Below, piece after piece: positions 28,969 to 58,738 of a stretch of 64,000 bases of DNA. Origin of the DNA: Candidatus Eiseniibacteriota bacterium (GTDB lineage Bacteria; Eisenbacteria; RBG-16-71-46). The notes under the pieces are model-generated. The model was not told the DNA's origin, searched no databases, and worked only from the letters and a program-made list of their open reading frames with translations. The DNA lies in the NCBI GenBank assembly GCA_046327815.1, contig JAXLXR010000001.1, positions 260,185 through 324,184 on the forward strand. Direction: 5' to 3'. The position numbers were made by a program, and so were the translations under genes. Numbering within the stretch: position 1 is the stretch's first letter; every line of letters starts with the position of its first letter.

Positions 28969-29745
28969 ATGGCGCGCGCATCCACGCTGGATCACTGGGA
29001 GTCGTACTGGAAGGGCCACGCGACCGACATCGAGGACACGTACTCGACCGGCGGGCGGCTCGTGCGCGAAACGCTCGCGGACGGTCCGGTCGCGGGCAAG
29101 TGGGTGATGGAGATCGGCGCGGGTTCGGGCCGCGACCTGATCGAACTCGCGCGCATGGGCGCGCGGGGCATCGTGCTCGACTACTCGCCGGCCTCGCTCG
29201 CGCTGGTGAAGCGCCAGGCCGAGGCGCAGGGCGTGCCCGTGATGCTCGTGCAGGCCGACGCCACGCGCATGCCGTTCCGCGACCAGTCCATCGACGTGTC
29301 GTTCCACCAGGGCCTGCTCGAGCACTTCCGCGACCCGATGCCGCTGCTGAACGAGAACGCGCGAGTGACCGCGCGCGGCGGCCGCATGATCGTGGACGTG
29401 CCGCAGACGTTCCACCTGTACACGCTCATGAAGAACGTGCTCATCCTGCTGAACAAGTGGTTCGCGGGCTGGGAAACGCAGTTCACTCCGGCGCAGCTCG
29501 AGACGCTCTGCGCGTCCACCGGACTCGAGGTCGTGCGCACGTACGGCGACTGGATGGTGCCCGGGCTCTGGTACCGCGTGACGCGCGAGGTGCTCAAGCG
29601 CGGGCTCGGGATCCGGCTGCCGCTGCACCCGAAGGGCCCGGCGTTCTGGTCGAACGGCTGGGACGCGCTGCGCGCATCGTGGCGCGGGCAGCGCTGGGCG
29701 CTGTGGACGAGCCACGTCATCGGCACGGTGGCCCGCCGCCCATGA
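28969..29745 (+). CDS. class I SAM-dependent methyltransferase
   Basis: SAM-binding motif I VMEIGAGSGRD and acidic motif II VLDYSP. Confidence 0.75.
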   Translation: MARASTLDHWESYWKGHATDIEDTYSTGGRLVRETLADGPVAGKWVMEIGAGSGRDLIELARMGARGIVLDYSPASLALVKRQAEAQGVPVMLVQADATRMPFRDQSIDVSFHQGLLEHFRDPMPLLNENARVTARGGRMIVDVPQTFHLYTLMKNVLILLNKWFAGWETQFTPAQLETLCASTGLEVVRTYGDWMVPGLWYRVTREVLKRGLGIRLPLHPKGPAFWSNGWDALRASWRGQRWALWTSHVIGTVARRP

Positions 29746-30860
29746 ACCGTCCGCGCCACCTGCTCGCCGTGAACTTCCGCGACCCCGCGCATCCCGAGGC
29801 GGGCGGCGCGGAGCTGCACCTCGAGGAGATCCTGCTCGAGGCGGTGCGGCGCGGCTGGCGCGTGACGTGGCTCGCGAGCGGTTTCGTGAACGCTCCCTCC
29901 GAGGCCGAGCACCGCGGCATGCGCATCGTGCGCCGCGGCGACTGGTGGAACTTCAACCTCGTCGTCCCGCGCGTGCTGCATGCGGAGTTCTCGGGCACGA
30001 ACCAGCCCGACCTGGTCGTCGAGGACATCAACAAGGTGCCGTGCTTCTGCGCCCAGTACACGCAGGCGCCCGTCGCCGTGATCGTGCCGCACCTGTTCGG
30101 CACGACCGCGTTCCAGGAAGCGAACGCCGTGGTCGCCGCGTACGTGGTGCTGCTCGAGAAGCTGATCCCGTCCGCGTACCGCGGCTCGCGCTTCCTCGCG
30201 ATCTCCGAAAGCACGCGCGACGACCTCGTCGCGCGCGGCGTGCCCGCGTCGCGCATCGCGGTGGTGCACTGCGGTCTCGACCACGAACGCTACTTCGCCG
30301 ATCCCGGCGTGGCGAAGACGCCCGAGCCGACGCTCGTCTACGTCGGCCGGCTGCGCCGCTACAAGGGGCTCGACTGGGTCATCCGCACGCTGCCGCGGCT
30401 GCGCTCGTGGGTGCCGAAGCTGAAGCTGCACGTGATCGGCGACGGCCCGTGGCAGGGCGAGCTCGTGAAGCAGGCGGCCGCCTGCGGCGTGGCCGACATG
30501 GTCGAGTTCCGAGGCTTCCTGCCCGCGCGCGAGAAGGTGCCGACGATCCAGTCGGCGTGGGCGCTGGTGCAGCCGAGCCCCAAGGAGGGCTGGGGGCTCA
30601 CGGTGGTGGAGGCCGGCGCGTGCGCGACCGCGGTGGTCGCGGCCGACAGCCCGGGCCTGCGCGACTCCGTGCGCCGCGACCAGACCGGGTTGCTCGTGCC
30701 GTTCGGTGACGACGTCGCGCTCGCCGACGCGATCGCGCGCGTGTGCACGGAACCCGCGCTGCGCGACTCGCTCGCGAGTGCGGGCGTGCAGTGGGCGTCG
30801 GGATTCCGCTGGGACGATTGCGCGCGCCGGTCGCTCGACGCGCTGGCGGGGGAGGGCTGA
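29742..30860 (+). CDS. glycosyltransferase family 4
   Basis: GT-B C-terminal domain with EGWGLTVVEAGACATAVVAADSPGLRDSV (E-X7-E). Confidence 0.8.
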   Translation: MNRPRHLLAVNFRDPAHPEAGGAELHLEEILLEAVRRGWRVTWLASGFVNAPSEAEHRGMRIVRRGDWWNFNLVVPRVLHAEFSGTNQPDLVVEDINKVPCFCAQYTQAPVAVIVPHLFGTTAFQEANAVVAAYVVLLEKLIPSAYRGSRFLAISESTRDDLVARGVPASRIAVVHCGLDHERYFADPGVAKTPEPTLVYVGRLRRYKGLDWVIRTLPRLRSWVPKLKLHVIGDGPWQGELVKQAAACGVADMVEFRGFLPAREKVPTIQSAWALVQPSPKEGWGLTVVEAGACATAVVAADSPGLRDSVRRDQTGLLVPFGDDVALADAIARVCTEPALRDSLASAGVQWASGFRWDDCARRSLDALAGEG

Positions 30861-31879
30861 TGGCGCTTCCGGGCGGGCGTTCGCCGAAGACCATGATCCT
30901 GCTCGGGGCGAAGATCGTCGCCTCGTTCGCGCTCTTCTGGTGGCTCTACCACCGCGTGGACTGGGTGAACGCCGAAAACACGATCGCCCACGCGAAGCTC
31001 GAATGGCTCGGCGCCGCGTTCGGCATGCTGTTCCTGAGCAACATCGGCGGTGCCGCGCAGTGGAACCGGCTGCTGCGTGCGGCGGGCATCGAACTGCCGT
31101 TCTGGAAGGTCGTGGCCTACTACCACGTCGGCCTGTTCTTCAACAATTTCCTGCCCGCGAACGTCGGCGGCGACTTCGCGCGCGTGCTCGACGCCTCGCG
31201 CGCGAGCGACGTGTCGCGGACAACCGCGTTCTCGACCGTGCTGCTCGACCGCATGATCGGCACCGTCGCGCTCGGCGCGCTCGCGGTGCTCACGACGTTG
31301 CCCGCGCTCGACGACCAGCACATCCATTTCGAGATGCTGCTCGGGCTGTGGGGGGGCGCCACCGCGTTCTTCTTCGTGACCGTGCTCATGCTCTGGGCGG
31401 TGTTCCATCCCCGCCTGCTCGCGGCGATCGAGGGGCTGCTCGGCCGCGTCGGCCTCGGGCAGCTCAAGCCCGCGCTGGACGAGCTTTCGGAGCGGCTGGC
31501 GCTCTACCGGGGGCAGCGGCGAATGTTCATGGAATTGTTCGCCATCGCGCTCACCGTGCAGGTCCTGCGCATCGGCGTGCACATCCTGGTGGCCCGCGCG
31601 CTCGGCCTGAGCGTCCCGACGGCCTACTTCTTCCTTTTCGTGCCGTTGCTGGCGGTGATAGTTTCGCTGCCCATCTCATTCAATGGCATCGGGGTACGTG
31701 AAGGCGCGGGGATCTTCCTGTTCGGCCTGGTCGGGCTCGGGCAGGCGGCCGCGTTCTCGCTGCAGTTCACGACGTACCTCGTTGCCTTCGCGGTCAGCTT
31801 GATCGGGGGCATCGTGTTCCTGGTCCGCATCCCGCATCGCCGGGCGGAATCCCGGACTCCACGGAGGCCTGAGGAATGA
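30860..31879 (+). CDS. LPG_synthase_TM / flippase-like (UPF0104) membrane protein
   Basis: Polytopic; conserved YYHVGLFFNNFLPANVGGDFAR loop typical of the lysylphosphatidylglycerol-synthase TM-region family. Confidence 0.65.
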   Translation: MALPGGRSPKTMILLGAKIVASFALFWWLYHRVDWVNAENTIAHAKLEWLGAAFGMLFLSNIGGAAQWNRLLRAAGIELPFWKVVAYYHVGLFFNNFLPANVGGDFARVLDASRASDVSRTTAFSTVLLDRMIGTVALGALAVLTTLPALDDQHIHFEMLLGLWGGATAFFFVTVLMLWAVFHPRLLAAIEGLLGRVGLGQLKPALDELSERLALYRGQRRMFMELFAIALTVQVLRIGVHILVARALGLSVPTAYFFLFVPLLAVIVSLPISFNGIGVREGAGIFLFGLVGLGQAAAFSLQFTTYLVAFAVSLIGGIVFLVRIPHRRAESRTPRRPEE

Positions 31880-34518
31880 ACTCGAACACGAGAGTGGCCG
31901 GCCTGGTCGCTCTCCTCGTCTTCCTGATCACCGCGGTGGTGTACTTCCTGACGCTCACCCCCACGGTGCCGTTCTGGGATTCCGGCGAGTTCATCGGTGT
32001 GTCGTGGATCCTCGGCATTCCGCACCCCCCGGGTACGCCGTTCTACGTGCTGGTCGGGCGCATCGCCACGCTGCTGCCGATCGGCAGCGTCGCGCAGCGC
32101 GTCAACGGGCTGTCCGCGGTCGCCGGCGCCCTCTGCGTGTTCCTCACGTACCTGTCCATCCTGCGCATGGCGCGCCTGTCGCAGGGCGGCGAGCGCAAGG
32201 CGTGGCACGAGTGGGCGGCCATCGCGGGCGCGGCCTGCGGCGCGCTCATGCTCGCGTTCAGCGACACGTTCTGGGAGAACTCGACCGAGGCCGAGGTCTA
32301 CCAGATGATGAGCCTGGCCCAGATCCTCGTGTTCTGGCTCGGCCTGAAGTGGTGGGAGGCGCACGAGACCAAGCCCACCGTCGGCCCGCTGCTGCTCGCC
32401 ACGTTCATCATGTGGCTGAGCGTCGGCCTGCACCTCGGCGTCGGCGTCATGGGCGCGCCGCTGCTCGTGCTGGTCATGATGGTGGACTGGAAGGTCGGCA
32501 TGCTGTTCGTGCTGCCGTTCCTCGGGCTGCTGCGCGTGCCCGCGGGCCTCGAGAAGATGGCCGGCGCCGTGCTGCTGTTCTCGGTGGTCCAGAACTTCTG
32601 GTTCGTGTCGCAGAAGAAGCTCGAAGGCTGGCTCGCGACGGTCGCCGCGGCCGGCGCCGCGTTCGGGTTCTACTACGCGTCCTCGGACAAGGACTTCACG
32701 CCGCTCGCCGCGATCGTCGCCACGGCCGCGGTGGTCGTGCCACTCGCGTTCATGGCGGTGAAGCACAAGGAAGGGCGCGTCGGCCTGCTGATCCTGTTCC
32801 TCATGGTCGCGGGCTACTCGACCCACCTGTACCTGCCGATCCGCGCGGCGCAGCACCCCGGCATCAACGAGGGCGCGCCCGCCACGTGGAACTCGCTGCG
32901 CGACCTGCTCGAGCGCAAGCAGTACGGCGAGATGAGCATGACCGACTCGGACCGCGACGGCGTGTTCGACCGGCGCGGCATGACGACGTTCGAGGAAATC
33001 GCCGCGATCCAGCTCGACAAGGAGTTCTGGCGCTACTTCAGCCGCCAGTGGCCGATCATCCCGGGCGGCGCACCGCCCTTCTCGGCGCTGCTCCCGATCC
33101 TGCTCGGCATCGCCGGCGGCGTGTGGGCGTTCGCGAAGGACAAGCGGAGCTTCGCGTACAACTTCGTGTTCCTCGGGTTGAACACGGCCGGGCTCATCGT
33201 GTTCCTCAACTTCAGCAGCCACGAGGTGCGCGAGCGCGACTACTTCTTCCAGTCGGGCTACCACGCCTACGCCATGTGGATCGGCCTCGGCGTGGTGTGG
33301 CTGATCGCCTGGATCCGCGAGTCGTTCGCGGAAGGGCCGGGGCAGAAGTGGGCGACGATCGGCGCCGGCGTGCTGCTCTGCGCCCAGCCGTTCCTGCTCA
33401 TGAAGAACCTGTACTTCACGCACGACCGCAGCGGGAACTACATCGCGCGCGACTACGCCTACAACATGCTCGCGCCGCTCGCGCCGAACTCGTTCATGTT
33501 CACGAACGGCGACAACGACACGTTCCCGCTCTGGTACATCCAGCAGGTCGAGGGCTTCCGCAAGGACGTCCGCATCGTGAACCTGAGCCTGCTGAACACC
33601 GACTGGTACATCCGCCAGCTGCGCGACGAGGACCCGAAGCTCCCGATCACGTTCGACGACCGCATGGTGGACGCGCTCGGCGCCGGCATCGTGCAGGACG
33701 ACAAGGGCAACTACGTCCAGACGAACGAGGTCATGGTCCACCACCTGCTGCAGAACGCGCACAACGCCGACGGGACCTGGAAGCGGCAGCCGTACTTCGC
33801 CGTCACGGTGCCCGAGCACTACGGCTACGAGCGCCAGTTCCTGCTCGAAGGTCTCGTGAACCGCGTGCTGCCCGACACGGTCGGCGCGGGCGTGGACGAG
33901 GCGGCGACGCGCAAGGCGCTGTACGAGACGTTCCAGTACCGCGGCCTGTTCAACCCCGACGGCAGCAAGAACGAGAAGGTCTACAAGGACGAGAACTCGG
34001 AGACCCTGGCGCGCAACTACGCCGCGGCGCATCTCCAGCTCGCGTTCCACTACCGCCGCAAGGGCGACCTTCCGGCCGCGATCTCCGAGATGCAGGCGGT
34101 CGTGCGCGGCTTCCCGGACTTCCCGGAAGTGCAGATGCCGCTGGGCACGTTCTACATGGAAGCCGGCGACACCGCGAAGGCGATGGCGTTCTTCGCGGAC
34201 GTGGCGAAGCACAACCCGAACAACCCCGAGGCGCGCTACTACCACGGCGCCGCGCTCGCGGTCGAAGGCGACGTGAACGGCGCGATGCGCGAGTTCGACG
34301 CGGCGATCGCGCTCGACCCGAGCTACGACCAGCCGTACTTCGGCGCCTACTCGACGCTGCGCACGCTGGGGCAGGAGGAGCGCGCGTTCTCGTACCTGCA
34401 GCAGTGGGCGCAGCGCAACCCGAACGACCCGCGTGCCGCGAGCATCCTCGGCGTCGGCGGCGGTGCGGGCGGTCCTTCTCCGGGCGGCTCGCGTCCGCCC
34501 GTCACGCAGGTTCCGTAA
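31876..34518 (+). CDS. DUF2723 (PMT-like GT-C fold) membrane protein fused to C-terminal TPR repeats
   Basis: N-terminal motif PTVPFWDSGEF.....GIPHPPGTPFY characteristic of DUF2723; ~11 TM helices; C-terminal ~250 aa with TPR-like repeats. Confidence 0.75.
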   Translation: MNSNTRVAGLVALLVFLITAVVYFLTLTPTVPFWDSGEFIGVSWILGIPHPPGTPFYVLVGRIATLLPIGSVAQRVNGLSAVAGALCVFLTYLSILRMARLSQGGERKAWHEWAAIAGAACGALMLAFSDTFWENSTEAEVYQMMSLAQILVFWLGLKWWEAHETKPTVGPLLLATFIMWLSVGLHLGVGVMGAPLLVLVMMVDWKVGMLFVLPFLGLLRVPAGLEKMAGAVLLFSVVQNFWFVSQKKLEGWLATVAAAGAAFGFYYASSDKDFTPLAAIVATAAVVVPLAFMAVKHKEGRVGLLILFLMVAGYSTHLYLPIRAAQHPGINEGAPATWNSLRDLLERKQYGEMSMTDSDRDGVFDRRGMTTFEEIAAIQLDKEFWRYFSRQWPIIPGGAPPFSALLPILLGIAGGVWAFAKDKRSFAYNFVFLGLNTAGLIVFLNFSSHEVRERDYFFQSGYHAYAMWIGLGVVWLIAWIRESFAEGPGQKWATIGAGVLLCAQPFLLMKNLYFTHDRSGNYIARDYAYNMLAPLAPNSFMFTNGDNDTFPLWYIQQVEGFRKDVRIVNLSLLNTDWYIRQLRDEDPKLPITFDDRMVDALGAGIVQDDKGNYVQTNEVMVHHLLQNAHNADGTWKRQPYFAVTVPEHYGYERQFLLEGLVNRVLPDTVGAGVDEAATRKALYETFQYRGLFNPDGSKNEKVYKDENSETLARNYAAAHLQLAFHYRRKGDLPAAISEMQAVVRGFPDFPEVQMPLGTFYMEAGDTAKAMAFFADVAKHNPNNPEARYYHGAALAVEGDVNGAMREFDAAIALDPSYDQPYFGAYSTLRTLGQEERAFSYLQQWAQRNPNDPRAASILGVGGGAGGPSPGGSRPPVTQVP

Positions 34519-34530
34519 GGAGCGCGAACG

Positions 34531-35484
34531 ATGGCCGTGCATGCGCTGGTGACCGGAGCGGCGGGGTTCATCGGGTCCACGCTGTCGGAGCGTCTGCTCG
34601 CCGACGGCGTGACCGTGACCGGCGTGGACTGCTTCACCGACTACTACGACGTGCGCCTCAAGCGGAAGAACCTCGAGAAGGCGCTCGCGCACCCGGGCTT
34701 CACGCTGCTCGAACTCGACCTCGGCGCCGCGGATCTCGCCGCGCTGCCGAAGGTGGACGTGGTATTCCACCAGGCGGCGCAGGCCGGCGTGCGGGCGTCG
34801 TGGGGCAAGGACTTCGCGTCCTACGCGCACCACAACGTGCTCGCCACCCAGCGGCTGCTCGAACGCTACCGCGACGAGACGCTGCAGCGCTTCGTGTACG
34901 CGTCGTCGTCGAGCGTGTACGGCGACGCCGAGCGCTACCCGACCGACGAGCAGCTGTTGCCGCGGCCGTTCTCGCCGTACGGCGTCACGAAGCTGGCGGC
35001 CGAGCACCTCGTGCTGCTCTACGGGCGCAACTTCGGCATCCCGGTCTCGGCGCTGCGCTACTTCACCGTGTACGGGCCGCGCCAGCGTCCCGACATGGCG
35101 TTCCACAAGTTCTGCAAGGCCATGCTGCAGGGTGACGAGATCCCGGTGTACGGCGACGGACGGCAGTCGCGCGACTTCACGTTCATCAGTGACGCGATCG
35201 AGGCGAACGTGCGCGCGTGGCAGCGCAGCGCCCCGCAGGGCGTGTACAACATCGGCGGCGGCTCGCAGGTGGACGTGCTCGAGGCGGTCGCCCTGCTCGA
35301 GGAGGCGCTCGGCGTGAAGGCGAAGCTGCGCTTCGAGCCGCGCCCGCCGGGCGATCCGCTGCGCACGCGCGCCGACGCGACCCGCCTGCGCGCCGACCTC
35401 GACTACGAGACCAAGGTGCCGATCCGCGAGGGCCTGTTCGCGGAAGCCGAGTGGGCGAAGACGCTCTACGGGGCGAAGGCGTGA
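34531..35484 (+). CDS. NAD-dependent nucleotide-sugar epimerase/dehydratase (extended SDR)
   Basis: GAAGFIGS Rossmann motif, catalytic SSSSVYG and YGVTK (YxxxK). Confidence 0.85.
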   Translation: MAVHALVTGAAGFIGSTLSERLLADGVTVTGVDCFTDYYDVRLKRKNLEKALAHPGFTLLELDLGAADLAALPKVDVVFHQAAQAGVRASWGKDFASYAHHNVLATQRLLERYRDETLQRFVYASSSSVYGDAERYPTDEQLLPRPFSPYGVTKLAAEHLVLLYGRNFGIPVSALRYFTVYGPRQRPDMAFHKFCKAMLQGDEIPVYGDGRQSRDFTFISDAIEANVRAWQRSAPQGVYNIGGGSQVDVLEAVALLEEALGVKAKLRFEPRPPGDPLRTRADATRLRADLDYETKVPIREGLFAEAEWAKTLYGAKA

Positions 35485-36422: not shown

Positions 36423-36424
36423 GC

Positions 36425-48351: not shown

Positions 48352-48371
48352 CCCGAGGAGTCGCACGCTTC

Positions 48372-50798: not shown

Positions 50799-51514
50799 TG
50801 GAAAAGCTCGTCATCGTCCCGACGTACAACGAGATCGACAACATCCGTCCGTTGCTCGAGAAGGTGCTGGCGCTGCCGTACGGGCTCGACATCCTGATCG
50901 TGGACGACAACTCTCCCGACGGCACCGCCGACGTGGTGAAGGAGTGGCAGCAGAAGTCCGACCGCGTGCACCTGCTGCAGCGCCCCGGCAAGATGGGGCT
51001 CGGCTCGGCCTACCGCGACGGCTTCCGCTACGCGCTCGCGAACGGCGCCGAGTACATCTTCGAGATGGACGCCGACTTCTCGCACGATCCCGAGGCGATC
51101 GGGCAGTTCCTCGAGGAGGCGAAGGACGCCGACATCGTGCTCGGCAGCCGGTACCTGCACGGCGTCACGGTGGTGAACTGGCCGCTCAGCCGGCTGATCC
51201 TGTCGTACTCGGCGAACGTGTACACGCGGATCATCACCGGCCTGCCGCTCGCCGATTCGACCGGCGGATTCAAGTGCTTCCGCCGCCGCGCGCTCGAGGG
51301 CATCAAGCTCGATCGCGTGAAGTCCGAGGGCTATTCGTTCCAGATCGAGATGTCGTTCCGGTGCTGGAAGCGCGGCTTCCGCATCAAGGAGATCCCGATC
51401 ATCTTCGTGGACCGGCGCGCCGGCGTGTCCAAGATGAGCCGCAAGATCATCTGGGAAGCCGCGGGCATGGTCTGGCGCCTGCGCCTGCTCGACCTGTTCG
51501 GCCAGTTGGAGTGA
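50798..51514 (+). CDS. polyprenol-monophosphomannose synthase / dolichol-phosphate mannosyltransferase-like GT2 (soluble Ppm1/DPM1-type)
   Basis: IVPTYNEIDNI, LIVDDNSPDGT and MDADFSHDP motifs; 238 aa without TM. Confidence 0.85.
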   Translation: MEKLVIVPTYNEIDNIRPLLEKVLALPYGLDILIVDDNSPDGTADVVKEWQQKSDRVHLLQRPGKMGLGSAYRDGFRYALANGAEYIFEMDADFSHDPEAIGQFLEEAKDADIVLGSRYLHGVTVVNWPLSRLILSYSANVYTRIITGLPLADSTGGFKCFRRRALEGIKLDRVKSEGYSFQIEMSFRCWKRGFRIKEIPIIFVDRRAGVSKMSRKIIWEAAGMVWRLRLLDLFGQLE

Positions 51515-51521: not shown

Positions 51522-53765
51522 ATGATCCGCCGCCTGTTCCTTCTCGCGATCTCGCTGTGCGCGTCGTTCGCCGCCGCCGCTCCTGCCGGAGCGACGGGGG
51601 CGTGGACGACCTACCTGCGGATGTTTTCGTGCAACGACCTCGTCGCCTCGCGCGACACGGTGTGGATGGCGTCGGCCGAAGCGGGCCTCGTCTACCAGGT
51701 CCGGAGCACGGGCGCGTTCGGTTCGTTCACCCGCGAGCCGGGCGGGCTCGCGAGCAACACGCTCAGCGCTCTCGCGTTCGACCGGTCCGGCCGGCTGTGG
51801 GCCGCGACGCCCGAAGTCGGCGTGAGCCGGCTTTCCGCGAACCGCGCCACGTGGGATCTGGTGAACGCGTTCGACGGGCTCCCGTCGGACACCGTGCACG
51901 TGCTGCGCGCCGAGGGCGACACACTGTGGATCGGAACCGAGCGCGGCATCGCACTGTGGGACGGTACGCAGATCGCCGGCTCCGTGCCGGACCTGGGCAC
52001 GCCGTCGCCGTTCCGCAGCAACGTGGTCACCGGCATCGTCGTCGTTCATGACTCGTTGTTCGTTTCCACCGCCGACGGCATCTACGTGGCCCGGCTGTCG
52101 CAGCAGCTCGCGACGTGGGCGAACGTGGACGGGGGACTGCTGTCCACGAACGTGCTGGCGCTGGCGTCGGACGGTCGCGAGGTGTTCGCGCTCGCCAACG
52201 GCACCACGTACCGCTGGAGCATGACGGCACACACGTGGGGAGTGGCCGCCGGCCAGGGCTCGGTGCGCAAGCTGCGCGACGGCTTCGGACGCATGTACTC
52301 GATTTCCGCCACCGGTATCTGGAAGTGGGTGACGAACCAGTGGGTGCTGGTGAGCGGGTCCCCGGTCGCGATCGGCAGCGAGGACGGCGGGCAGGAGTTC
52401 TCGGACGATCCGGATGGCGTGATCTTCTCGTTCGGGGCCGGGGTGCTCAAGCGCCAGGCGGCGCCGGACTGGACGACGGTGAAGCCGCCCGGGCCGGTCG
52501 GCAACAGCGTCCAGAACCTTCTCGTGGACGGTTCCCGCGTCTGGGTGAACACGTACGGTGAGGGCGTCGGCCGCTGGGACGGCGTGCAGTGGCGGAACTG
52601 GGATCCCACCGCGTGCGCCGCGACCTCGGACACGACGTTCGCGAACGCCGCGTTCGCGTTCACGCTGCTCCGGGACGCGTCCGGACACATCTGGACTTCG
52701 CACTGGGAGCAGGGCATCGAACGCATCGACGCCTCGGTGAGTCCGCCGCAGTTCGATCACGTGATCTCGACTTGCGGCCTGCCGGTCGGCGACACGCTCT
52801 GCCGCCACACCGACGGCTGGGCGTCCGCCGTGGACGCTTCGGGATTCGTCTACATCGGGGGCGACACCCCGGACCGCGGCTCGCTCGAGCCGATGGGCAT
52901 CGACGTGTACGCACCGAACGGATCGCCGGTGATCAACTGGAAGGCCCTCAATGCCGGGCTCGGCGACAACCAGGTGCGCGCCATCTCCGTGTCGAAGGAC
53001 AGCGTCATCTGGGTCGGCTTCGCGAACAATCGCGGCGTCAGCTGGGCGACGCTCGCCTCGACAGGACCCGGACGCCTCACGCTCCCGGCGTTCACATCGA
53101 TCCCCGAGCTGACGACGACGGACATCTTCGGCGTCGTCGCGCACGGGGATTCGATCTGGGTGCTGACGACGCAGAACCTCCGCCGCATCAGCCGCGTCAC
53201 GCGCACGCTCGTCTCCTCGCAGCTCGAGATTCCCGCGGGACCGGCCCCGCGCGGCGCGGTGCGGCCGCTCGACGTGGGGCCCGACGGTTCGGTGTGGGTG
53301 GGCACGACGGACGGCGTGCGGCACTTCAAGCGCGGTGGAGGCTACGAGGACTTCAAGACCTCGAACTCGCCGCTCGCGAACAACGAACTCCGCGCCGTGT
53401 GCGTGGACCCGGTCACGGGAGTGGTGTGGTTCGGCACGGCGGCGGGCATCAACCGCTTCGACCCGAACTACACGCCGCCCGCGCCGCCCGCGCTGTCGAA
53501 GCTCGAACTGCTGCTGTACCCGAACCCGCTGTCGCTCACGCGCATGGGGCTCGAACTGCGGCTGCGCGGCAACACCACCGCGTACACGGGCGAGATCCTC
53601 GACCTCGGCGGGCGCGTGGTGCGCACGTTCGCGGCGAGTGCGAACGACCGCGTGATCTGGGACGGCCGCGACTCGCGCGGCAAGCTCGTGCAGCCCGGGG
53701 TGTACTTCGTGCACGCGCGCGGCGGTGGCCGTGAGGGCATCGCGCGCGCCGTCGTGCTGCGCTGA
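51522..53765 (+). CDS. secreted beta-propeller protein (two-component-regulator-propeller/Reg_prop repeats) with T9SS/FlgD-Ig C-terminal sorting domain
   Basis: Signal peptide; repeated LWIGTERGIALWDG, VWVGTTDGVRHFK, VWFGTAAGINRFD motifs; C-terminal LYPNPL...IWDGRDSRGKLVQPGVYFVHA CTD. Confidence 0.75.
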   Translation: MIRRLFLLAISLCASFAAAAPAGATGAWTTYLRMFSCNDLVASRDTVWMASAEAGLVYQVRSTGAFGSFTREPGGLASNTLSALAFDRSGRLWAATPEVGVSRLSANRATWDLVNAFDGLPSDTVHVLRAEGDTLWIGTERGIALWDGTQIAGSVPDLGTPSPFRSNVVTGIVVVHDSLFVSTADGIYVARLSQQLATWANVDGGLLSTNVLALASDGREVFALANGTTYRWSMTAHTWGVAAGQGSVRKLRDGFGRMYSISATGIWKWVTNQWVLVSGSPVAIGSEDGGQEFSDDPDGVIFSFGAGVLKRQAAPDWTTVKPPGPVGNSVQNLLVDGSRVWVNTYGEGVGRWDGVQWRNWDPTACAATSDTTFANAAFAFTLLRDASGHIWTSHWEQGIERIDASVSPPQFDHVISTCGLPVGDTLCRHTDGWASAVDASGFVYIGGDTPDRGSLEPMGIDVYAPNGSPVINWKALNAGLGDNQVRAISVSKDSVIWVGFANNRGVSWATLASTGPGRLTLPAFTSIPELTTTDIFGVVAHGDSIWVLTTQNLRRISRVTRTLVSSQLEIPAGPAPRGAVRPLDVGPDGSVWVGTTDGVRHFKRGGGYEDFKTSNSPLANNELRAVCVDPVTGVVWFGTAAGINRFDPNYTPPAPPALSKLELLLYPNPLSLTRMGLELRLRGNTTAYTGEILDLGGRVVRTFAASANDRVIWDGRDSRGKLVQPGVYFVHARGGGREGIARAVVLR

Positions 53766-53782
53766 GCCGGGAGGAACCCGCG

Positions 53783-54823
53783 ATGCAGGCGCCGGCCGCG
53801 CGCGTACTCGACGCCGCGCCCGCGGAGTGGGCCGCGCTGCTCGCGGCCGACCCCGCGGCGGCGCCGTCGCACCGGCCCGAACTCTGGGCGGCCTTCACCG
53901 CGGTGTCGCCCGAACTCGCGCTGCGCGTCGTCGCGGTGGAGCGCGACGGCCGACTGATCGGTGGCGCGCCCGCGCTGCTCGAGCGCCGCGGCGGCCTGCA
54001 CCGCCTGCACGCGCTGCCCATGCTGCTCGCGGCGGCGCCGCTGGCGCTGCCCGGCATGCACGCGGAAGTGGACGCGGCCGTGGCCGGCGCGTTCGCCGCG
54101 CTGGCGCGCGAGCACGACGTCGTGGGCGGGGAGTGGGCGCTGCACCGCGCCACGGGGCCCGCGTTTTCCGCCGAGGCGCTCGCCCTGCTGCCCGGCGAGA
54201 CGCGCTGGCTCGAGGCGTCGGTCGTCACGCTCGAGCAGGGGCTCGACGCGGCCGCGAAGCGCATCGGCCGCAAGCACCGGCAGGCCATGCGCCAGACGCG
54301 CGACGCCGGGCTCGAGTGTTCGGTGGCGCCGCCAGGACCGGAAGCCGACGACGCGCTCGAGGCGGTGTACGCGCTGCACCTCGCGCAGTCGCGGCGCTGG
54401 GGCGGCCACCGTGCCCTGCCGTTGCCGCTTTCGCGCGCGCTGATCGCGCGCGGCGCCGCGCGGCTGTTCGAGGTGCGCCGCGGCGGCGAACGGCTCGCCG
54501 GGGCGCTCGCGCTCGACGGCGACCGCGAGACGTTCGTGTGGTGGAGCGGCACGCACGCCGCCGGCCGCCGGCTCGGCGCGTTCCCGCTGCTGCTGTGGGG
54601 CATCGTCGAATGGGCGGCCGCGGCCGGCCGCGCGCGCGTGAACCTGGGCGCGAGCACCGACCTCGCGAACGTCGCCTCGTTCAAGAGCGCGCTCGGCGCC
54701 GAAGCGCAGCGCTACCCGGTGCGCTGGCTGGCGCCGGTCGCGGCGACGCCCGTGGCCCGGTTGTTCGCGGCGCTGCAGGCGCGTGTGCGACGCGGGCGCG
54801 CGCGGGGCGAGGCCGAAGCATGA
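53783..54823 (+). CDS. FemAB/CelD-like GNAT acyltransferase
   Basis: 346 aa with acyl-CoA N-acyltransferase-type C-terminal half (ETFVWWSGTHAAGRRLGAFPLLLWGIVEWAA). Confidence 0.55.
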   Translation: MQAPAARVLDAAPAEWAALLAADPAAAPSHRPELWAAFTAVSPELALRVVAVERDGRLIGGAPALLERRGGLHRLHALPMLLAAAPLALPGMHAEVDAAVAGAFAALAREHDVVGGEWALHRATGPAFSAEALALLPGETRWLEASVVTLEQGLDAAAKRIGRKHRQAMRQTRDAGLECSVAPPGPEADDALEAVYALHLAQSRRWGGHRALPLPLSRALIARGAARLFEVRRGGERLAGALALDGDRETFVWWSGTHAAGRRLGAFPLLLWGIVEWAAAAGRARVNLGASTDLANVASFKSALGAEAQRYPVRWLAPVAATPVARLFAALQARVRRGRARGEAEA

Positions 54824-55902
54824 GGATCGCGACGCTCTCGAACGCCTCGGTCGTGCACACCGTGCGCTGGGTCGAACACCTGCGCGCGCGCGGGCACGAG
54901 GTGCGCGTGTGGTCGCTCGAGCCCGGGCCCGAGTCGCTCGGTGTGCACCGCCTGCCCGAGCCGCCGCTGCCCGGGTTCGTGCGCTACCCGCTCGCCACGC
55001 TGCCGCTGCTGTGCGAACTGCGCGCGTTCGCGCCGGACGTGGTGGACGCGCACTACGTACCCAACTACGGCGTGATCGGCGCACTGTCGGGATTCCGGCC
55101 GCTGTCGGTGGCCGCGTGGGGGAGCGACCTGCTGGTGGCCGGGCCGCGCGACGTGCTGCAGCGTGCGCGTGCGCGCTTCGTGCTGCGCCGCGCCGACCTC
55201 GTGATCGCGGACAGCGGCAACCTGGCCGCGGCCGCGCTGGCGCTGGGAGCGCCGCGCCGCACGCTGCGCGCGATCCCGTGGGGCGTAGACCGCGAGCGCT
55301 TCGCGCCCGCGCCCGAGCGCGAACGCGGGCTGCTGCTGTCCACGCGCATGCACGAGCACGTCTACGACATTCCCACGCTGCTGCGCGGCGTCGCGCCGGT
55401 CATGGCGAGGCGTCCCGAGACCCGGCTCGTGATCGCCGGCGACGGCTCGCTGCTCGACGCGCACCGCGCGCTCGCGGCCGAACTGCTGCCCGCCGGGCGC
55501 GTCGAATGCACCGGGCGCATCACGCCGGCCACGCTCGCGGGGCTGTTGTCGCGCGCCGAGGTCTACCTGTCGGCTTCGTTGTCCGATTCCACGTCGCTGT
55601 CGCTGCTCGAGGCCATGGCCGCCGGAGCGATTCCCGTGGTGAGCGACATCGAGGGCAACCGCGAGTGGGTCGCCGACGGCGACGGCGCGCGGCTGTTCGC
55701 GTGCGGTGATGCCGCGGGCGTGGAACGTGCGCTCGAAGCGGCGCTCGGCGAGCCGGCGTGGGCCGCCGCGGCGCGCGCGCGCAACGCCGCCGTGATCGCC
55801 GAACGCGGCGACTGGCACGCGAACTTCGCGCGCATCGAGCGCGCGTTCGAGGCGCTCGCGGCGGGACGGCCGCTGCCGCCCGATCCGGGAGCGTTCGCGT
55901 GA
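54820..55902 (+). CDS. glycosyltransferase family 4
   Basis: SLSLLEAMAAGAIPVVSDIEGNREWV donor-binding motif. Confidence 0.8.
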   Translation: MRIATLSNASVVHTVRWVEHLRARGHEVRVWSLEPGPESLGVHRLPEPPLPGFVRYPLATLPLLCELRAFAPDVVDAHYVPNYGVIGALSGFRPLSVAAWGSDLLVAGPRDVLQRARARFVLRRADLVIADSGNLAAAALALGAPRRTLRAIPWGVDRERFAPAPERERGLLLSTRMHEHVYDIPTLLRGVAPVMARRPETRLVIAGDGSLLDAHRALAAELLPAGRVECTGRITPATLAGLLSRAEVYLSASLSDSTSLSLLEAMAAGAIPVVSDIEGNREWVADGDGARLFACGDAAGVERALEAALGEPAWAAAARARNAAVIAERGDWHANFARIERAFEALAAGRPLPPDPGAFA

Positions 55903-57203
55903 ACCGCCGACTGCTCGTGCTCGCGTACTTCTTCCCGCCGCTCGCCGGCGGCGGCGTGCACCGCGCGCTCGCGTTCACGCGCCACCTGCCCGAGCACGGC
56001 TGGGACTGCACGGTGATCTGTGCGGGCGAGGACGACTACTGGGTGCGCGACGAGTCGCTGCGCGCCCGCGTGGATCCGCGCACCGAAGTGATCCGCGTGA
56101 GCGGGGGCAGCGCCCTGTCCGCGTTGCTGCGCGCGCGCGGCGGGACGGCCGCCGCCGGGCGGCGCAGTGGCGGCTGGTTCGCGCCGTTGCGCGCGGCGTC
56201 GGACTGGTGGCTGCTGCCCGACTCCTACGCCGGCTGGGCGAAGCGCGCCGAGCAGGCCGCGGCGGCGCGGCTCGCGGCCGGCGGCGTGGACGCGCTGCTC
56301 ACGACCTCGCCGCCCGACAGCGTGCACCTCGCGGGCGCGTCGCTCGCGCGCCGGTTCCGGGTGCCGTGGATCGTGGACTACCGCGATCCGTGGATCGGGC
56401 TGTACTTCCGGACGCCGCCCACGCCGTGGCACCGCGCACGTCACCGCGCGATGGAGCGCCGCGTGAACGAGGGCGCGAACCTCGTGCTCGCCGCGTCGCA
56501 CACGCACGAGGCGCAGCTGCGCGCGAGCGGCGACCGCCTGCGCGCCCTCGAGTGGCTGCCGAACGGCTTCGAGCCCGCGGCCGGCGTCGCGGCCACGGTG
56601 ACGGCGGATGACGCGGCGAAGTTCCGGCTCGTGTTCACCGGTACGCTTTCGCTGATGCCCGACGCGCTCACGCTGCTCGAGGCGCTGCGCGCGTTCCTCG
56701 CGCGCGTGCCCGACGCGCGTGCGGCGCTCGATGTGGTGCTCGCCGGGCCGTACGACACCACGTACGAGGCGCGTGCCACGGCGCTCGGGCTCGGCGGCGT
56801 GGTGCGGTTCCCGGGCGCGCTCGCGCACGCCGAGGCGCGCGCGTTGCAGCGTTCCGCCGACGCGCTGCTGCTGTGGAAGCCGCCGGGCGAGGGCTACGCC
56901 ACGATGGTGCCGGGCAAGCTCTACGAGTACCTCGACGCCGGGCGGCCGATCGTCGCGCTCGTCCCCGAAGGCGACGAGGCCGGCGACCTCGTGCGCCGCG
57001 CGGGCGGCGCCGTGCTGCCCCCGGGAGACCCCGGCGCACTGGCGCGCGAACTCGAAACGCGGTACATGGCATGGCACCGGACGGGCCGCGCAGCGGACGC
57101 GCGCCCCGGCTGGCTCGACGCGCACGCCCGGCCGGCGCTGGCCGCGCGGCTCGCCGCACTCCTCGATGGGCTCACCGGAGGGAACCCGTGGTCCTCACGC
57201 TGA
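55899..57203 (+). CDS. glycosyltransferase family 4
   Basis: LLVLAYFFPPLAGGGV N-terminus; PGKLYEYLDAGRPIVAL C-terminal motif; GTGA overlap. Confidence 0.75.
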   Translation: MNRRLLVLAYFFPPLAGGGVHRALAFTRHLPEHGWDCTVICAGEDDYWVRDESLRARVDPRTEVIRVSGGSALSALLRARGGTAAAGRRSGGWFAPLRAASDWWLLPDSYAGWAKRAEQAAAARLAAGGVDALLTTSPPDSVHLAGASLARRFRVPWIVDYRDPWIGLYFRTPPTPWHRARHRAMERRVNEGANLVLAASHTHEAQLRASGDRLRALEWLPNGFEPAAGVAATVTADDAAKFRLVFTGTLSLMPDALTLLEALRAFLARVPDARAALDVVLAGPYDTTYEARATALGLGGVVRFPGALAHAEARALQRSADALLLWKPPGEGYATMVPGKLYEYLDAGRPIVALVPEGDEAGDLVRRAGGAVLPPGDPGALARELETRYMAWHRTGRAADARPGWLDAHARPALAARLAALLDGLTGGNPWSSR

Positions 57204-58738
57204 ACGGACCGGTCACGAAGGTCGAACGCGTCGGCCTGGCCGTCGCACTGGTGCTCGCGTTCGCGCTCATGTGGCCCGTGCGCCACTACCTGACGGACGA
57301 CACGTTCATCCACCTGCAGTACGCGAAGCATCTGGCGGCGGGGCAGGGCTTCGTGTTCAACGTGGGCGAGCACGTCTACGGCAGCACGAGTCCGCTGTGG
57401 GTGGCGCTGATCGCCGACGGCATGGCGCTCGGGCTCGACGGCCTCTGGACCGCGCGCGTGCTGGGCGGCATCGCCACGCTGTGGTCGGTGGTGCTGTTCT
57501 TCCAGCTCATGCGGCGCAACCTGCGCATGCCCGAACTGCGCGCGCTCGCCACGATCACGTGGGCCTGCCACGCGTGGATGATCCGCTGGTCGCTCTCCGG
57601 CATGGAGACGCCGCTCGCCGTGGCGCTCGTGCTCGCCGGGTTCGTGGCGTTCACCGAGGGCAAGCAGTGGGGCTCGCGCCCGGTGCGCACCGGCGCGCTG
57701 TGGGCCCTGGCGGCGCTCACCCGGCCCGAGGCGGTGTTCCTGCTCGTGCTGTGGGGCATGTTCCTGGTCGTGGACACCGACTCGCGCGAAGGCGTGCGGC
57801 GGCTGATCGCGGGCGTGATCCCGCCGGCGCTCATCTACGGCGGCTGGCTGCTGTTCTCGCGCCTGTACTTCGGCACCTTCTGGCCGAACACGCTCGCGGC
57901 GAAGACGGCGGGCGGGATCGGGCTCGCGTACTTCCTCGACACGCTGATGCGGCAGGTGAAGATCATCGGCGCCACCGACGCCGCGCTCGCCGGCGCGATG
58001 GTGGCCGCCATGGTGTTCGGCGGGACGCGGCTGTGGCCGCGGCGCATGATCGCGCAGCGCTTCCTGCCGTGGGTCTGGGTCGCGGTGGTGCCGGCGCTGT
58101 ACGTGATGCGCGGTGTGCCGGTGCTGTCGCGCTACCTCGTACCGCTCATGCCCGTGCTCGCGTGGCTCGCGTGGCGCGCCGTCGAACGCTGGTGGGCGGG
58201 CGAGGAGCCCGCGCCCGAACTGCGGCGCGGCGCTGCGCTGCTCGGCATCGGGCTCGCGTCGCTGGCGCTCGTGCAGAACCTGCTCGTCTACAACAACGTC
58301 GTGCTGCCGCAGGTGCGCTCGTTCAGCGCCGGGCTGCGGCAGAGCCTGATTCCGTGGGGCGAGTGGTTCGACCAGCACACGAAGCCCGGGGTGTCGATCG
58401 CGGCGCCGGACATCGGCGCGCTCGGGTTCTACGCGAACCGCCGCGTCGTGGACCTGGCTGGACTGGTGACGCCGGGCATCGTGCCGCTGCTCGAACGCGA
58501 GCAGCCCGAGGATCTCGTCGCCAACTTCTCGTTCGCGAGCGTCGCGCGGCCCGACTTCCTCGTGGATCGCTCGACCCGCGCGTACGACCTGCTCTCGCGC
58601 AGCCGCTGGTCGGCCGCGCTGGTGCCGCTCGGCAACGCCGCGGTGCCGAACCTCGGCGTGGCGCGGCCGGGTTCCGCCGTCTACTCGTTCTACCGGGTGG
58701 ACTGGGCGGCCTACGACTCGCTCGCCGCGACGCGCTGA
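57188..58738 (+). CDS. polytopic membrane protein, probable GT-C glycosyltransferase/polymerase
   Basis: ~11 TM segments; N-terminal loop with conserved DD (YLTDDTF); overlaps preceding GT4 by 16 nt. Confidence 0.45.
   Translation: MVLTLNGPVTKVERVGLAVALVLAFALMWPVRHYLTDDTFIHLQYAKHLAAGQGFVFNVGEHVYGSTSPLWVALIADGMALGLDGLWTARVLGGIATLWSVVLFFQLMRRNLRMPELRALATITWACHAWMIRWSLSGMETPLAVALVLAGFVAFTEGKQWGSRPVRTGALWALAALTRPEAVFLLVLWGMFLVVDTDSREGVRRLIAGVIPPALIYGGWLLFSRLYFGTFWPNTLAAKTAGGIGLAYFLDTLMRQVKIIGATDAALAGAMVAAMVFGGTRLWPRRMIAQRFLPWVWVAVVPALYVMRGVPVLSRYLVPLMPVLAWLAWRAVERWWAGEEPAPELRRGAALLGIGLASLALVQNLLVYNNVVLPQVRSFSAGLRQSLIPWGEWFDQHTKPGVSIAAPDIGALGFYANRRVVDLAGLVTPGIVPLLEREQPEDLVANFSFASVARPDFLVDRSTRAYDLLSRSRWSAALVPLGNAAVPNLGVARPGSAVYSFYRVDWAAYDSLAATR

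Follow-up and report, generated by a model that had tools for sequence, protein, structure and literature searches.

In the three-component systems GtrA/GtrB/GtrC, CsbB/GtcA/YfhO (for lipoteichoic and wall teichoic acids) and ArnC/ArnEF/ArnT, a family 2 glycosyltransferase (GT2) makes a polyprenol-phosphate sugar, a flippase follows, and a glycosyltransferase of the GT-C fold acts on the extracytoplasmic side (PMC5836110, PMC8035078). The O-glycosylation cluster of Tannerella forsythia is a 27-kb polycistronic unit that contains wzx, glycosyltransferase (Gtf), methyltransferase (Mtf) and asnB genes and lacks Wzy, a priming enzyme and an oligosaccharyltransferase (OTase) (PMC6120980). In the linking-sugar pathway for the anionic lipopolysaccharide (A-LPS) of Porphyromonas gingivalis, wzx and asnB (porS and wbpS) are adjacent and VimA matches TIGR03019 (PMC7468200). 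The P. gingivalis protein PorZ, which consists of two seven-fold beta-propellers and an 85-residue C-terminal domain (CTD) and is structurally similar to BT4663 (PMC5121618), delivers A-LPS to the sortase PorU (PMC8545088). Human TMEM260 is a protein O-mannosyltransferase that modifies Ig-like (IPT) beta-sandwich domains (PMC10214176). Elements reminiscent of all these systems occur together in a cluster of 23 genes at positions 28969 to 58738 of a 64,000-nucleotide stretch of DNA (hereafter the window) from contig JAXLXR010000001.1 of a Candidatus Eisenbacteria genome.

The cluster is read here as a hybrid assembly line that makes a core cell-envelope glycan of Candidatus Eisenbacteria, surface handling by a PorZ-like protein included, and the chances of this reading are put at about even. 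What makes the locus notable is the presence of four GT-C families in one operon, its phylum-wide fixation beside the division and cell wall (dcw) genes, and the embedded PorZ-like gene; otherwise it combines genes of known kinds.

The arrangement of the genes is beyond chance: more than 40 independent contigs show the identical order. The cluster is colinear in these contigs at 42-97% protein identity and is fixed in Eisenbacteria between the riboflavin genes with nusB (rib-nusB) and the dcw genes, which begin with mraZ. For the 5' half, the TMEM260-like protein of the cluster was used to scan GTDB, which gave 20 Eisenbacteria loci (a few under other labels); comparison of all window proteins with these genome loci by tblastn shows them to be colinear from ychF and rib-nusB through wzx at 53-97% identity. 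The 3' half is colinear in four contigs with homologues at 42-56% identity, in the order GT2, methyltransferase, (GT4), Wzx, AsnB, GT4, YfhO, GT2, PorZ-like, GNAT, GT4, GT4 and GT-C, followed by mraZ, STAS, rsmH, ftsL, a penicillin-binding protein (PBP) gene and murE. A metagenome scan with a profile of the PorZ-like protein added 20 contigs of at least 7 kb with a full-length relative, all with the same neighbours, and the order is kept at 37-49% protein identity in the divergent contig L073. Only two genes are occasionally missing, that of the GNAT and the accessory GT4c (42702-43715), which L003, L004, L017 and L019 lack.

Identities of the cluster enzymes (53-97% for most) equal or exceed those of the flanking ribD, ribE, ribBA, ribH, nusB, mraZ, rsmH and PBP genes. 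Such phylum-wide colinearity is the opposite of the hypervariability of O-antigen and capsule loci and argues for a core envelope function; since the operon is as conserved as the cell-division genes, its product is probably an envelope component that defines the phylum. A preliminary description of this DNA, made from its letters alone, had raised an existing assignment of homologous loci in characterised organisms as an objection to its own proposal, and none turned up, all close relatives of the locus being uncultured Eisenbacteria. Eisenbacteria-type clusters were also found under public labels of Verrucomicrobiia, Acidiferrales/Acidoferrales, Udaeobacter and Sulfotelmatobacter (L018, L022, P0039, P0160, P0193 and P0356); the contigs and proteins so labelled are probably mis-binned or mislabelled contigs of metagenome-assembled genomes (MAGs).

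Three of the genes reach further than the phylum. In an Ignavibacteriales MAG (L026, 9971-19791), rib-nusB is followed by homologues of the TMEM260-like protein with its tetratricopeptide repeats (TPR), of the first GT4 of the cluster (GT4a, 45% identity) and of the LPG_synthase_TM protein. The position of this trio beside rib-nusB implies that it predates the Eisenbacteria. It is linked there to Wbp-type genes, as a PMT_2 GT-C, a GFO_IDH_MocA oxidoreductase (WbpB-type), a hexapeptide acetyltransferase (WbpD-type) and a GT2 come next. The open reading frame (ORF) of 742 aa after the trio was considered as a PorZ homologue and rejected, being the PMT_2 GT-C.

Conservation of this kind bears on the possibility that the cluster is an ordinary lipopolysaccharide (LPS) O-antigen, capsule or exopolysaccharide (EPS) locus with its Wzy, Wzz, export and priming functions encoded elsewhere and with GT-C/GT2 pairs that serve as Gtr-like side-branch systems. 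Such loci typically contain Wzx, many GT4 and GT2 enzymes, sugar activation, AsnB and methyltransferases, and Gtr-type three-component systems do decorate O-antigens. Several of the GT4s, AsnB and the GNAT find their best NCBIfam match among the PEP-CTERM/XrtA EPS models (stp2, stp3, eps_aminotran_1 and pepcterm_femAB), but all of these matches are far under the cut-offs. Loci of the ordinary kind are among the most variable, whereas order and sequences here are as conserved as rib and dcw, and four GT-Cs of different families are far above the usual single GtrC-type enzyme. Pfam and NCBIfam scans found none of the Wzy, Wzz/PCP, Wza/OPX and WbaP/WecA families in any window gene (38 called plus-strand genes from 20507 to the window end, with the upstream genes scanned as well), and no ABC transporter or other phosphoglycosyltransferase in the window. 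Thus the locus has the Wzx of a Wzx/Wzy locus and has neither its polymerase, export and priming set nor its variation in content between lineages. The preliminary description had seen no Wzy, Wzz or WbaP/WecA, which is borne out within the window, and had argued against a standard O-antigen locus, a view that gains support from a cluster that is colinear and as conserved as its riboflavin and dcw flanks. With conservation high and polymerisation and export genes missing from the window, the cluster is unlikely to be a standard locus for O-antigen, capsule or EPS, and the version in which the missing functions lie elsewhere is held to be very improbable.

The centre of the proposed assembly line is formed by four GT-C enzymes, which profile, sequence and fold searches assign to four families, in agreement with the number given in the preliminary description. 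These membrane proteins are thus GT-C glycosyltransferases and not transporters, an alternative that the same description had named. The first (31876-34518) contains a TMEM260-like domain (DUF2723, PF11028; 140 bits, over the cut-off) with C-terminal TPRs (TPR_19/TPR_14) and is 54-87% identical in 20 genome loci. The third (48348-50798) is a divergent member of the YfhO family that matches PF09586 at its C-terminus only (27.9 bits; cut-off 28.5) and also has C-terminal NCBIfam matches to PgfM1/PgfM2. About 11 transmembrane segments (TMs) at its N-terminus are followed by a large extracytoplasmic domain and then a TM at the C-terminus. HMMER, run in full over 1.8 billion representatives, gave more than 36,000 relatives of this protein, and 28 of 31 distant ones that were sampled match PF09586 (best E 1e-17), while a few match GT-C_AftD or PTPS_related.

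The second and fourth enzymes (39310-40899, 529 aa; 57188-58738, 516 aa) have no match in Pfam. The former matches the NCBIfam models LA_3751/3752 (38 bits) and WsfD (18 bits), and the profile of the latter family matches AftB (9dlf) among PDB sequences with an E-value of 8e-5. The PDB sequence-profile searches gave no significant match for the 529-aa family or the YfhO-like family, and a fold search and the Pfam scan of distant relatives were used for that reason. Alignments by hhalign of the YfhO-like and the ArnT-like families with the AftB-like family were uninformative, the alignments being of low diversity. AlphaFold (AF2) models of the two Pfam-silent proteins were built with alignments of Eisenbacteria homologues. 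That of the 529-aa protein (pLDDT 86, pTM 0.91) has ArnT as its top Foldseek match in the PDB (E 1.6e-5), followed by ALG9 and AglB, and matches GT-C proteins only. That of the 516-aa protein (pLDDT 89, pTM 0.90), which has a small C-terminal periplasmic alpha/beta domain, matches AftB (E 1.3e-9), then ALG12, ArnT, ALG9 and the OTase OST, and its best 44 matches are all GT-C. The GT-C fold rules out Wzy or WaaL as the identity of either protein. Both had been described at first as ArnT/PMT-like; this holds for the ArnT-like product of 39310-40899, and that of 57188-58738 is closest to AftB rather than to ArnT or PMT.

Acidic motifs stand directly after TM1 in all of these enzymes (WDSGE in 31876, SDE in 39310, DD in 57188 and SPD in 48348). 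A fifth GT-C of the window, a PMT_2 protein (22214-23956; 29.7 bits), has HDE at this place, and all five have 8-11 predicted TMs each. The PMT_2 gene lies between ychF with a gene of no assigned function and the rib operon, and it occurs only in the two closest relatives (L007, L015), being absent from the other Eisenbacteria loci. The four cluster enzymes are predicted to transfer sugars from polyprenol-phosphate donors on the extracytoplasmic face, a prediction supported by the donor synthases that are encoded with them.

These donor synthases are two GT2s, and the best solved relatives of both agree with the earlier call of two polyprenol-phosphate-hexose synthases. The first (35481-36422) is of the ArnC/GtrB type; it matches ArnC in the PDB (9bhc, 197 bits, residues 6-296 to 9-297), then GtrB (103 bits) and dolichol-phosphate mannose synthase (DPMS, 69 bits), and ends in a hairpin of TMs at 231-290. 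The second (50798-51514) is of the short Dpm1/DPMS type without a TM and matches Pyrococcus furiosus DPMS (5mlz, 106 bits, residues 3-229 to 25-247) and GtrB (34 bits). The sugar of either synthase is not assignable because neither reaches an NCBIfam equivalog cut-off: the first scores 191 bits against 529 for ArnC and 144 against 500 for PgfS, and the second 61 against 370 for PpgS and 66 against 325 for AglJ.

The combination of a TMEM260-like enzyme with donor synthases raises the possibility of general protein O-glycosylation, in which Wzx-flipped oligosaccharides and/or single polyprenol-phosphate sugars would be attached to Ser/Thr of many periplasmic and surface proteins. The TMEM260-TPR enzyme would be a protein O-glycosyltransferase (mannosyl-type) and the other GT-Cs would extend the glycan, as in LFG/Tannerella and the Pgf system of Streptococcus mutans. 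The 140-bit match of its membrane domain, a TPR domain of the substrate-binding type and the activity of human TMEM260 on Ig-like IPT domains (PMC10214176) are in favour of this explanation. So are a composition that parallels the cluster of T. forsythia (polycistronic, with wzx, Gtfs, Mtfs and asnB but neither Wzy nor a recognised OTase; PMC6120980), the matches of the ArnC-type GT2 to PgfS (144 bits) and of the YfhO-like protein to PgfM1/M2, and a phylum-wide conservation that fits a general glycosylation system. PMT/TMEM260-type GT-Cs, however, move single polyprenol-phosphate sugars and not oligosaccharides en bloc, which would leave the Wzx line still without an OTase, and the embedded PorZ-like protein is left unexplained. 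Also counting against it, to our knowledge no bacterial DUF2723 enzyme has a demonstrated acceptor, and none was found in the literature. General protein O-glycosylation is compatible with the hybrid assembly line, the two not being mutually exclusive; as the explanation of the locus it is considered rather unlikely.

The resemblance of the fourth GT-C to mycobacterial AftB and the presence of a DPMS/Ppm1-like synthase suggest another pathway, similar to that for phosphatidylinositol mannosides, lipomannan and lipoarabinomannan (PIM/LM/LAM). The GT4s would glycosylate a membrane lipid on the cytoplasmic side, the MprF-type LPG_synthase_TM protein and/or Wzx would flip it, and the four GT-Cs would elongate or branch it from the two polyprenol-phosphate donors to give a phylum-specific envelope glycolipid. 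This would agree with the occurrence of the GT4a, LPG_synthase_TM and TMEM260-TPR trio in Ignavibacteriales, with conservation and a position beside dcw that fit a structural envelope component, and with a window that contains no polyprenol-diphosphate priming enzyme, which is natural if the acceptor is a glycerolipid. Against this, the cluster has no identified lipid-specific enzyme (no PimA/PgsA-type signature and no acyltransferase), its GT4 matches to N-acetylglucosaminyl-PG synthase are weak (32-40 bits), and no donor pathway of the decaprenylphosphoryl arabinose (DPA) type is present. Moreover, flippases of the Wzx type in the multidrug/oligosaccharidyl-lipid/polysaccharide (MOP) family usually act on polyprenol-diphosphate oligosaccharides. 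A lipoglycan pathway is therefore regarded as unlikely.

The remaining genes would supply, build, tailor and flip the oligosaccharide. Pfam, NCBIfam and PDB searches reproduced the families called at the outset for six GT4s, a soluble GT2, a short-chain dehydrogenase/reductase (SDR), AsnB, Wzx and LPG_synthase_TM, and profile searches confirmed two methyltransferases, a FemAB-like GCN5-related N-acetyltransferase (GNAT) and a Reg_prop propeller protein with a CTD. The cluster opens with S-adenosylmethionine (SAM)-dependent methyltransferase 1 (28969-29745; Methyltransf_11, 71 bits; 69-96% identity in orthologous loci) and GT4a (29742-30860; Glycos_transf_1, 125 bits). The LPG_synthase_TM protein that follows (30860-31879; about 8-9 TMs; PF03706, 132 bits) matches the flippase-like domain TIGR00374 above the cut-off (57.6 bits), making it a candidate flippase of a lipid-linked sugar or glycolipid. 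Between the first GT-C and the ArnC-type synthase lies the NAD-dependent SDR sugar epimerase/dehydratase (34531-35484; PF01370, 188 bits), which has comparable scores against RmlB, GalE, TviC and heptose epimerase.

A ManC/HddC/MurU-like sugar-1-phosphate nucleotidyltransferase (36425-37114; PF00483, 86 bits) and an HddA-like GHMP anomeric sugar kinase (37111-38145; GHMP_kinases_N/C) come next. In NCBIfam the former matches mannose-1-phosphate guanylyltransferase (139 bits), MurU (100) and HddC (94), all under the cut-offs, and the latter matches HddA over its full length at 299 bits (cut-off 600). By its sequence the pair is an anomeric sugar activation pair, with no sugar assigned by score. 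The HddC/HddA-like activation of the preliminary description therefore holds as far as a nucleotidyltransferase and an HddA-like kinase go, and the heptose assignment is downgraded; a GDP-D-glycero-D-manno-heptose pathway was rejected on the HddA score, on the 94 bits of HddC against a cut-off of 300, and on a cluster with no GmhA (SIS) or GmhB (HAD).

Downstream of the kinase are GT4b (38156-39313; Glyco_trans_1_4, 101 bits), the ArnT-like GT-C, a soluble rhamnosyltransferase-like GT2 without a TM (40896-41807; Glyco_tranf_2_3, 39 bits; TIGR01556, 64 bits), SAM-dependent methyltransferase 2 (41804-42682; Methyltransf_11, 53 bits) and the GT4-like GT4c, with GT4 Pfam matches of 18-21 bits that are under the cut-offs. 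The Wzx-type MOP flippase (43712-45151; Polysacc_synt, PF01943, 60 bits; PF13440, 57 bits; HfsF-like, 46 bits) has about 12-14 TMs and is followed directly by the AsnB-type glutamine amidotransferase (45179-47227; Asn_synthase, 249 bits, with GATase_7). AsnB matches TIGR03108 (eps_aminotran_1) at 383 bits, under the cut-off, and its WbpS-like position after wzx makes it a candidate amidase that converts a uronic acid to a uronamide. GT4d (47227-48351; Glyco_trans_1_4, 42 bits) precedes the YfhO-like GT-C. After the PorZ-like gene come the FemAB-like GNAT (53783-54823; Acetyltransf_6, PF13480, 53.5 bits), a candidate for the transfer of an N-acyl or aminoacyl group to an amino sugar in a VimA-like role, and then GT4e (54820-55902; Glycos_transf_1, 70 bits; Glyco_transf_4, 59 bits) and GT4f (55899-57203; Glyco_trans_1_4, 38 bits; Glyco_trans_4_4, 35 bits), before the AftB-like GT-C ends the cluster.

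A possible connection to the cell surface is the PorZ-like protein (51522-53765), whose gene stands directly after that of the DPMS-type GT2 in every contig holding a full-length relative. The protein has a Sec signal peptide (MIRRLFLLAISLCASFAAAAPAGA), two Reg_prop beta-propellers and, at its C-terminus, a domain of about 87 residues that has a G-x-Y-type ending, as in type-A CTDs of type IX secretion systems (T9SS). This architecture of signal peptide, two propellers and type-A CTD matches that of PorZ, and no TM or kinase part is present. A homology search found a protein with 100% identity to it in a Candidatus Eisenbacteria MAG. The sole specific NCBIfam match is T9SS_PorZ (76 bits), and among sampled members of the family 38 of 38 match T9SS_PorZ (best E-value 2.5e-31, still under its cut-off) and 33 of 38 match TIGR04183. 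The family profile matches P. gingivalis PorZ (5m11) at 91 bits (E 3.5e-25) in three colinear blocks (174-441 to 157-436, 420-504 to 524-612 and 603-728 to 621-742) that cover most of the protein. Weak propeller matches in the metagenome scan (L076-L104, 23-30%) are generic Reg_prop proteins in unrelated contexts and have no bearing on the cluster. The preliminary description had proposed CTD/T9SS cargo as a possible target of the glycan; the embedded propeller-CTD protein gives this circumstantial support, and the acceptor itself remains a matter of inference. Two further window proteins, at 10095-11024 and 16746-18866, have FlgD_ig-type CTDs like that of the PorZ-like protein, and three CTD proteins in 64 kb suggest heavy use of a CTD-dependent route of surface display.

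From these families and their arrangement we infer an order of steps, a single common product and an acceptor, which may be a protein, a lipoglycan or an LPS-like anchor. In the first step, the GHMP kinase, the nucleotidyltransferase and the SDR would activate a sugar, and the six GT4s and one GT2 would assemble, on the cytoplasmic side and on a lipid carrier, an oligosaccharide that is defined and not polymerised. The two methyltransferases, the AsnB amidotransferase (uronic acid to uronamide) and the FemAB-like acyl or aminoacyl transferase would tailor it. Wzx would then flip the oligosaccharide to the periplasmic face. In the third step, the ArnC-like and DPMS-like GT2s would load sugars onto polyprenol phosphate and the LPG_synthase_TM-like protein, as the candidate flippase, would turn these over; the TMEM260-TPR, ArnT-like, YfhO-like and AftB-like enzymes would add the sugars periplasmically, as in the Gtr, CsbB/YfhO and Arn systems. 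Most tentative of all is the fourth step, in which the PorZ-like double-propeller CTD protein might handle the finished glycoconjugate at the cell surface; the glycoconjugate would then most likely serve to display or anchor CTD (T9SS-type) proteins.

The gene content divides into recognisable modules. Module (a), at 30860-38145, contains the flippase-like protein, TMEM260-TPR, SDR, ArnC-like GT2, nucleotidyltransferase and HddA-like kinase, for which activation, formation of a polyprenol-phosphate sugar, flipping and GT-C transfer would be a logical sequence. Module (b), at 48348-51514, is a CsbB/YfhO-type pair of the YfhO-like enzyme and the DPMS-like GT2 (PMC5836110, PMC8035078), and module (c) is the Wzx line with the six GT4s, one GT2, two methyltransferases, AsnB after wzx and the FemAB-like GNAT. 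In its make-up, module (c) recalls both the 27-kb Tannerella cluster (PMC6120980) and the porS-wbpS/VimA arrangement for the A-LPS linking sugar (PMC7468200). The ArnT-like and AftB-like GT-Cs lie outside these modules. It is also conceivable that the operon is the full gene set for an anchor glycan of T9SS cargo outside Bacteroidota, either A-LPS-like or a C-terminal linking glycan, built partly by GT-Cs and encoded in one transcription unit with a PorZ-like shuttle that would bring it to a sortase so that CTD proteins become covalently attached, and this is offered as a tentative possibility that is itself doubtful. The TMEM260-TPR enzyme may then additionally O-glycosylate Ig-like domains of the cargo.

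Genes were called from the GC signal at third codon positions and stop-to-stop frames, as the window has a G+C content of about 71% and mechanical lists are swamped by spurious ORFs. The 23 genes called at 28969-58738 are all on the plus strand, at intergenic distances of -16 to +27 bp (the widest between wzx and asnB), and the packing contains no terminator-like excess. The preliminary description had given about 24 genes on one strand with gaps of at most 27 bp, of which strand and packing stand and the count becomes 23. It was wrong in confining the packing to these coordinates. Upstream, ribD (24287), ribE, ribBA, ribH, nusB and a metallophosphoesterase gene (28227-28952) overlap or are separated by at most 16 bp, so that no intergenic gap exceeds 27 bp from ribD to 58738 (34.5 kb, 29 genes). 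Tight packing thus begins at ribD, behind a flavin mononucleotide (FMN) riboswitch (RF00050, 24026-24153, 107.7 bits) that is preceded by a promoter-like site (23987-24016) and followed by a terminator-like hairpin (24235-24260), and the left edge of the cluster is set by gene content and not by packing. On the 3' side, mraZ and the dcw genes follow after a gap of 207 bp. The calcineurin-like metallophosphoesterase (Metallophos_2, 55 bits; NCBIfam matches weak only) is possibly the first gene of the unit; it is found at the same position in L007-L025 at 60-85% identity and travels with the cluster in all Eisenbacteria loci. Read-through from the riboflavin-controlled leader into the glycan operon is conceivable, and the 23 genes are presumably transcribed as a single unit and presumably all serve one product. 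The run of plus-strand genes extends from about 20 kb to the window end, and a tRNA-Lys gene (anticodon TTT, 19837-19912) stands at its start, with a zf-HC2 (anti-sigma-like) gene and ychF just downstream.

Several points weigh against the hybrid assembly line. Tight packing also runs into the unrelated rib-nusB genes, so that packing alone is no proof of one pathway, and several independent glycosylation modules could be merely co-located. The PorZ-like scores (76-91 bits) are far under the NCBIfam equivalog cut-off for T9SS_PorZ (260), which is the reason for the name PorZ-like rather than PorZ, and the propellers score higher against Bacteroides hybrid two-component system (HTCS) sugar sensors (142 bits); these sensor matches are repeat-on-repeat and not colinear. 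The GNAT scores 26 bits against the FemAB/VimA-type model TIGR03019 (pepcterm_femAB; cut-off 260), and its gene is missing from one lineage (L049). Profile scans of the window found no WbpA/B/D/E or VimE in the cluster and no priming phosphoglycosyltransferase, ligase/OTase or GtrA/GtcA-type flippase in the window, and because of the latter neither the carrier lipid nor the final transfer step can be assigned. A literature search on T9SS in Eisenbacteria or other candidate phyla of the FCB group yielded nothing usable. The evidence is all computational and the organisms are uncultured.

The first of these points leads to the explanation of the cluster as a glyco-island in which at least two independent pathways have nothing but regulation and location in common and make no shared product. 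Examples would be a CsbB/YfhO-type module, an Arn-like module acting on lipid A or another lipid, a Wzx oligosaccharide pathway, and an action of AsnB and FemAB-like enzymes on precursors of peptidoglycan beside dcw. Packing ties the unrelated rib-nusB genes to the cluster equally well and is no evidence of shared function, the ArnC-type GT2 has 197 bits to ArnC, GT4c and the GNAT are each dispensable in some lineages, and the cluster abuts mraZ; enzymes of the AsnB and FemAB families are known peptidoglycan modifiers. However, no ArnA/B/D genes are present, AsnB is directly after wzx as in Wbp-type loci, and the interleaved order of the modules (GT4s between GT-Cs, the PorZ-like gene between the DPMS-type GT2 and the GNAT) has been kept over deep divergence, which a co-assembled pathway explains more easily. 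Independent pathways are thus thought to be quite unlikely, and the hybrid assembly line is retained.

Eisenbacteria are widespread in soil and groundwater, are uncultured, and have an envelope that is essentially unstudied. The locus offers a dense natural set of four GT-C families with two lipid-phosphate donors and is useful for assigning functions, outside Actinobacteria, to bacterial DUF2723/TMEM260-like, divergent YfhO and AftB-like enzymes. Should the PorZ link be real, a second phylum would have glycan synthesis and surface attachment of the T9SS type linked at the genetic level, and the cluster would be a compact, clonable gene set for testing the anchoring of CTD cargo.

Other features of the window stand apart from the glycan cluster. 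A cbb3-type cytochrome oxidase cluster downstream of purA (1625-9924; fused ccoN-ccoO, ccoP, fixG, fixH, a DsbD_2-like gene and a Cu-ATPase gene of the FixI type) indicates microaerobic respiration in this Eisenbacteria MAG. The region from about 11300 to 18866 encodes giant repeat-rich surface protein sequence that ends in a FlgD_ig/T9SS-like CTD at 18866. It contains a 222-bp (74-aa) tandem repeat, similar to a divergent InlB B-repeat (Flg_new_2), in 11 copies at 15092-17562 and 1.9 copies at 13843-14265. The reading frame shifts between copies (5% indels), which may reflect assembly frameshifts or a pseudogene. The minus-strand ORF at 12604-15189 was rejected as a gene, since its Arg-rich translation is an antisense artefact of the plus-strand repeat protein, and the other long minus-strand ORFs of the region are artefacts likewise. 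Among the dcw genes, a STAS-domain (anti-sigma-antagonist-like) gene at 59398-59856 lies between mraZ and rsmH and is conserved in L001, L003, L004 and many metagenome loci. The FtsI-type PBP (61333-63453) carries C-terminal PASTA domains (55.9 bits, two stretches); a PBP with PASTA domains is an unusual feature in what is presumably a diderm of the FCB group.

Compared with known systems, the cluster is similar in composition to the Bacteroidota LFG/Tannerella clusters, which like Eisenbacteria belong to the FCB superphylum. All are about 27-30 kb long and contain wzx, Gtfs, methyltransferases, asnB and sugar-nucleotide genes without Wzy, a priming transferase or a recognisable OTase. The likeness is one of composition. 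The Tannerella and Bacteroides clusters have no GT-C, polyprenol-phosphate-sugar synthase or PorZ-like gene, and the outer part of the glycan is species-specific there whereas the present cluster is conserved across the phylum. With the A-LPS and PorZ-PorU system of P. gingivalis the locus has in common the PorZ-type architecture colinear with 5m11, wzx followed by AsnB, a FemAB-like GNAT that recalls VimA, and a genome in which CTD-bearing proteins are abundant. In contrast to that system, WbpA/B/D/E, VimE, WbaP, Wzy and WaaL are absent from the window, and the GT-C enzymes are without a known part in A-LPS synthesis. We know of no report of porZ within the A-LPS biosynthesis gene cluster of P. 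gingivalis.

The use of multiple GT-Cs on polyprenol-phosphate donors together with cytoplasmic GT4s (PimA/B-like) recalls the mycobacterial and corynebacterial machinery for LM, LAM and arabinogalactan (Ppm1, PimE, AftA-D, Emb). Mycobacterial AftB is the closest to the fourth GT-C in sequence and fold, yet the two are only about 20% identical, and here DPA pathway genes (UbiA-type, DprE1/2) are absent, the lineage is FCB, and the cluster includes Wzx and a PorZ-like protein. Eukaryotic TMEM260 and TMTC proteins share with the first GT-C the PF11028 membrane domain and the joining of a GT-C to a soluble TPR part as in TMTC1-4; here the TPR part is C-terminal on a TMEM260-type and not a PMT_2-type module, and the bacterial protein is known from sequence. 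The S. mutans Pgf system (PgfS, PgfM1, PgfE and PgfM2) likewise brings together in one locus a GT2 synthase (PgfS-like here, 144 bits), an SDR of the 4-epimerase type and YfhO-family GT-Cs, but it is a four-gene Gram-positive adhesin system as opposed to a 23-gene operon, and the scores are far under the equivalog cut-offs. The three-component systems are resembled in the arrangement of donor synthase and transferase, since one GT2 adjoins the YfhO-like GT-C (48348-51514) and the other lies in a block with the flippase-like protein and TMEM260-TPR (30860-36422). Unlike those systems, four GT-Cs of four families share two donor synthases here, and the candidate flippase is an MprF-type LPG_synthase_TM protein in place of a small GtrA/GtcA flippase. 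Rather than being accessory or serotype-converting, these enzymes are embedded in a Wzx/GT4 line that is found throughout the phylum.

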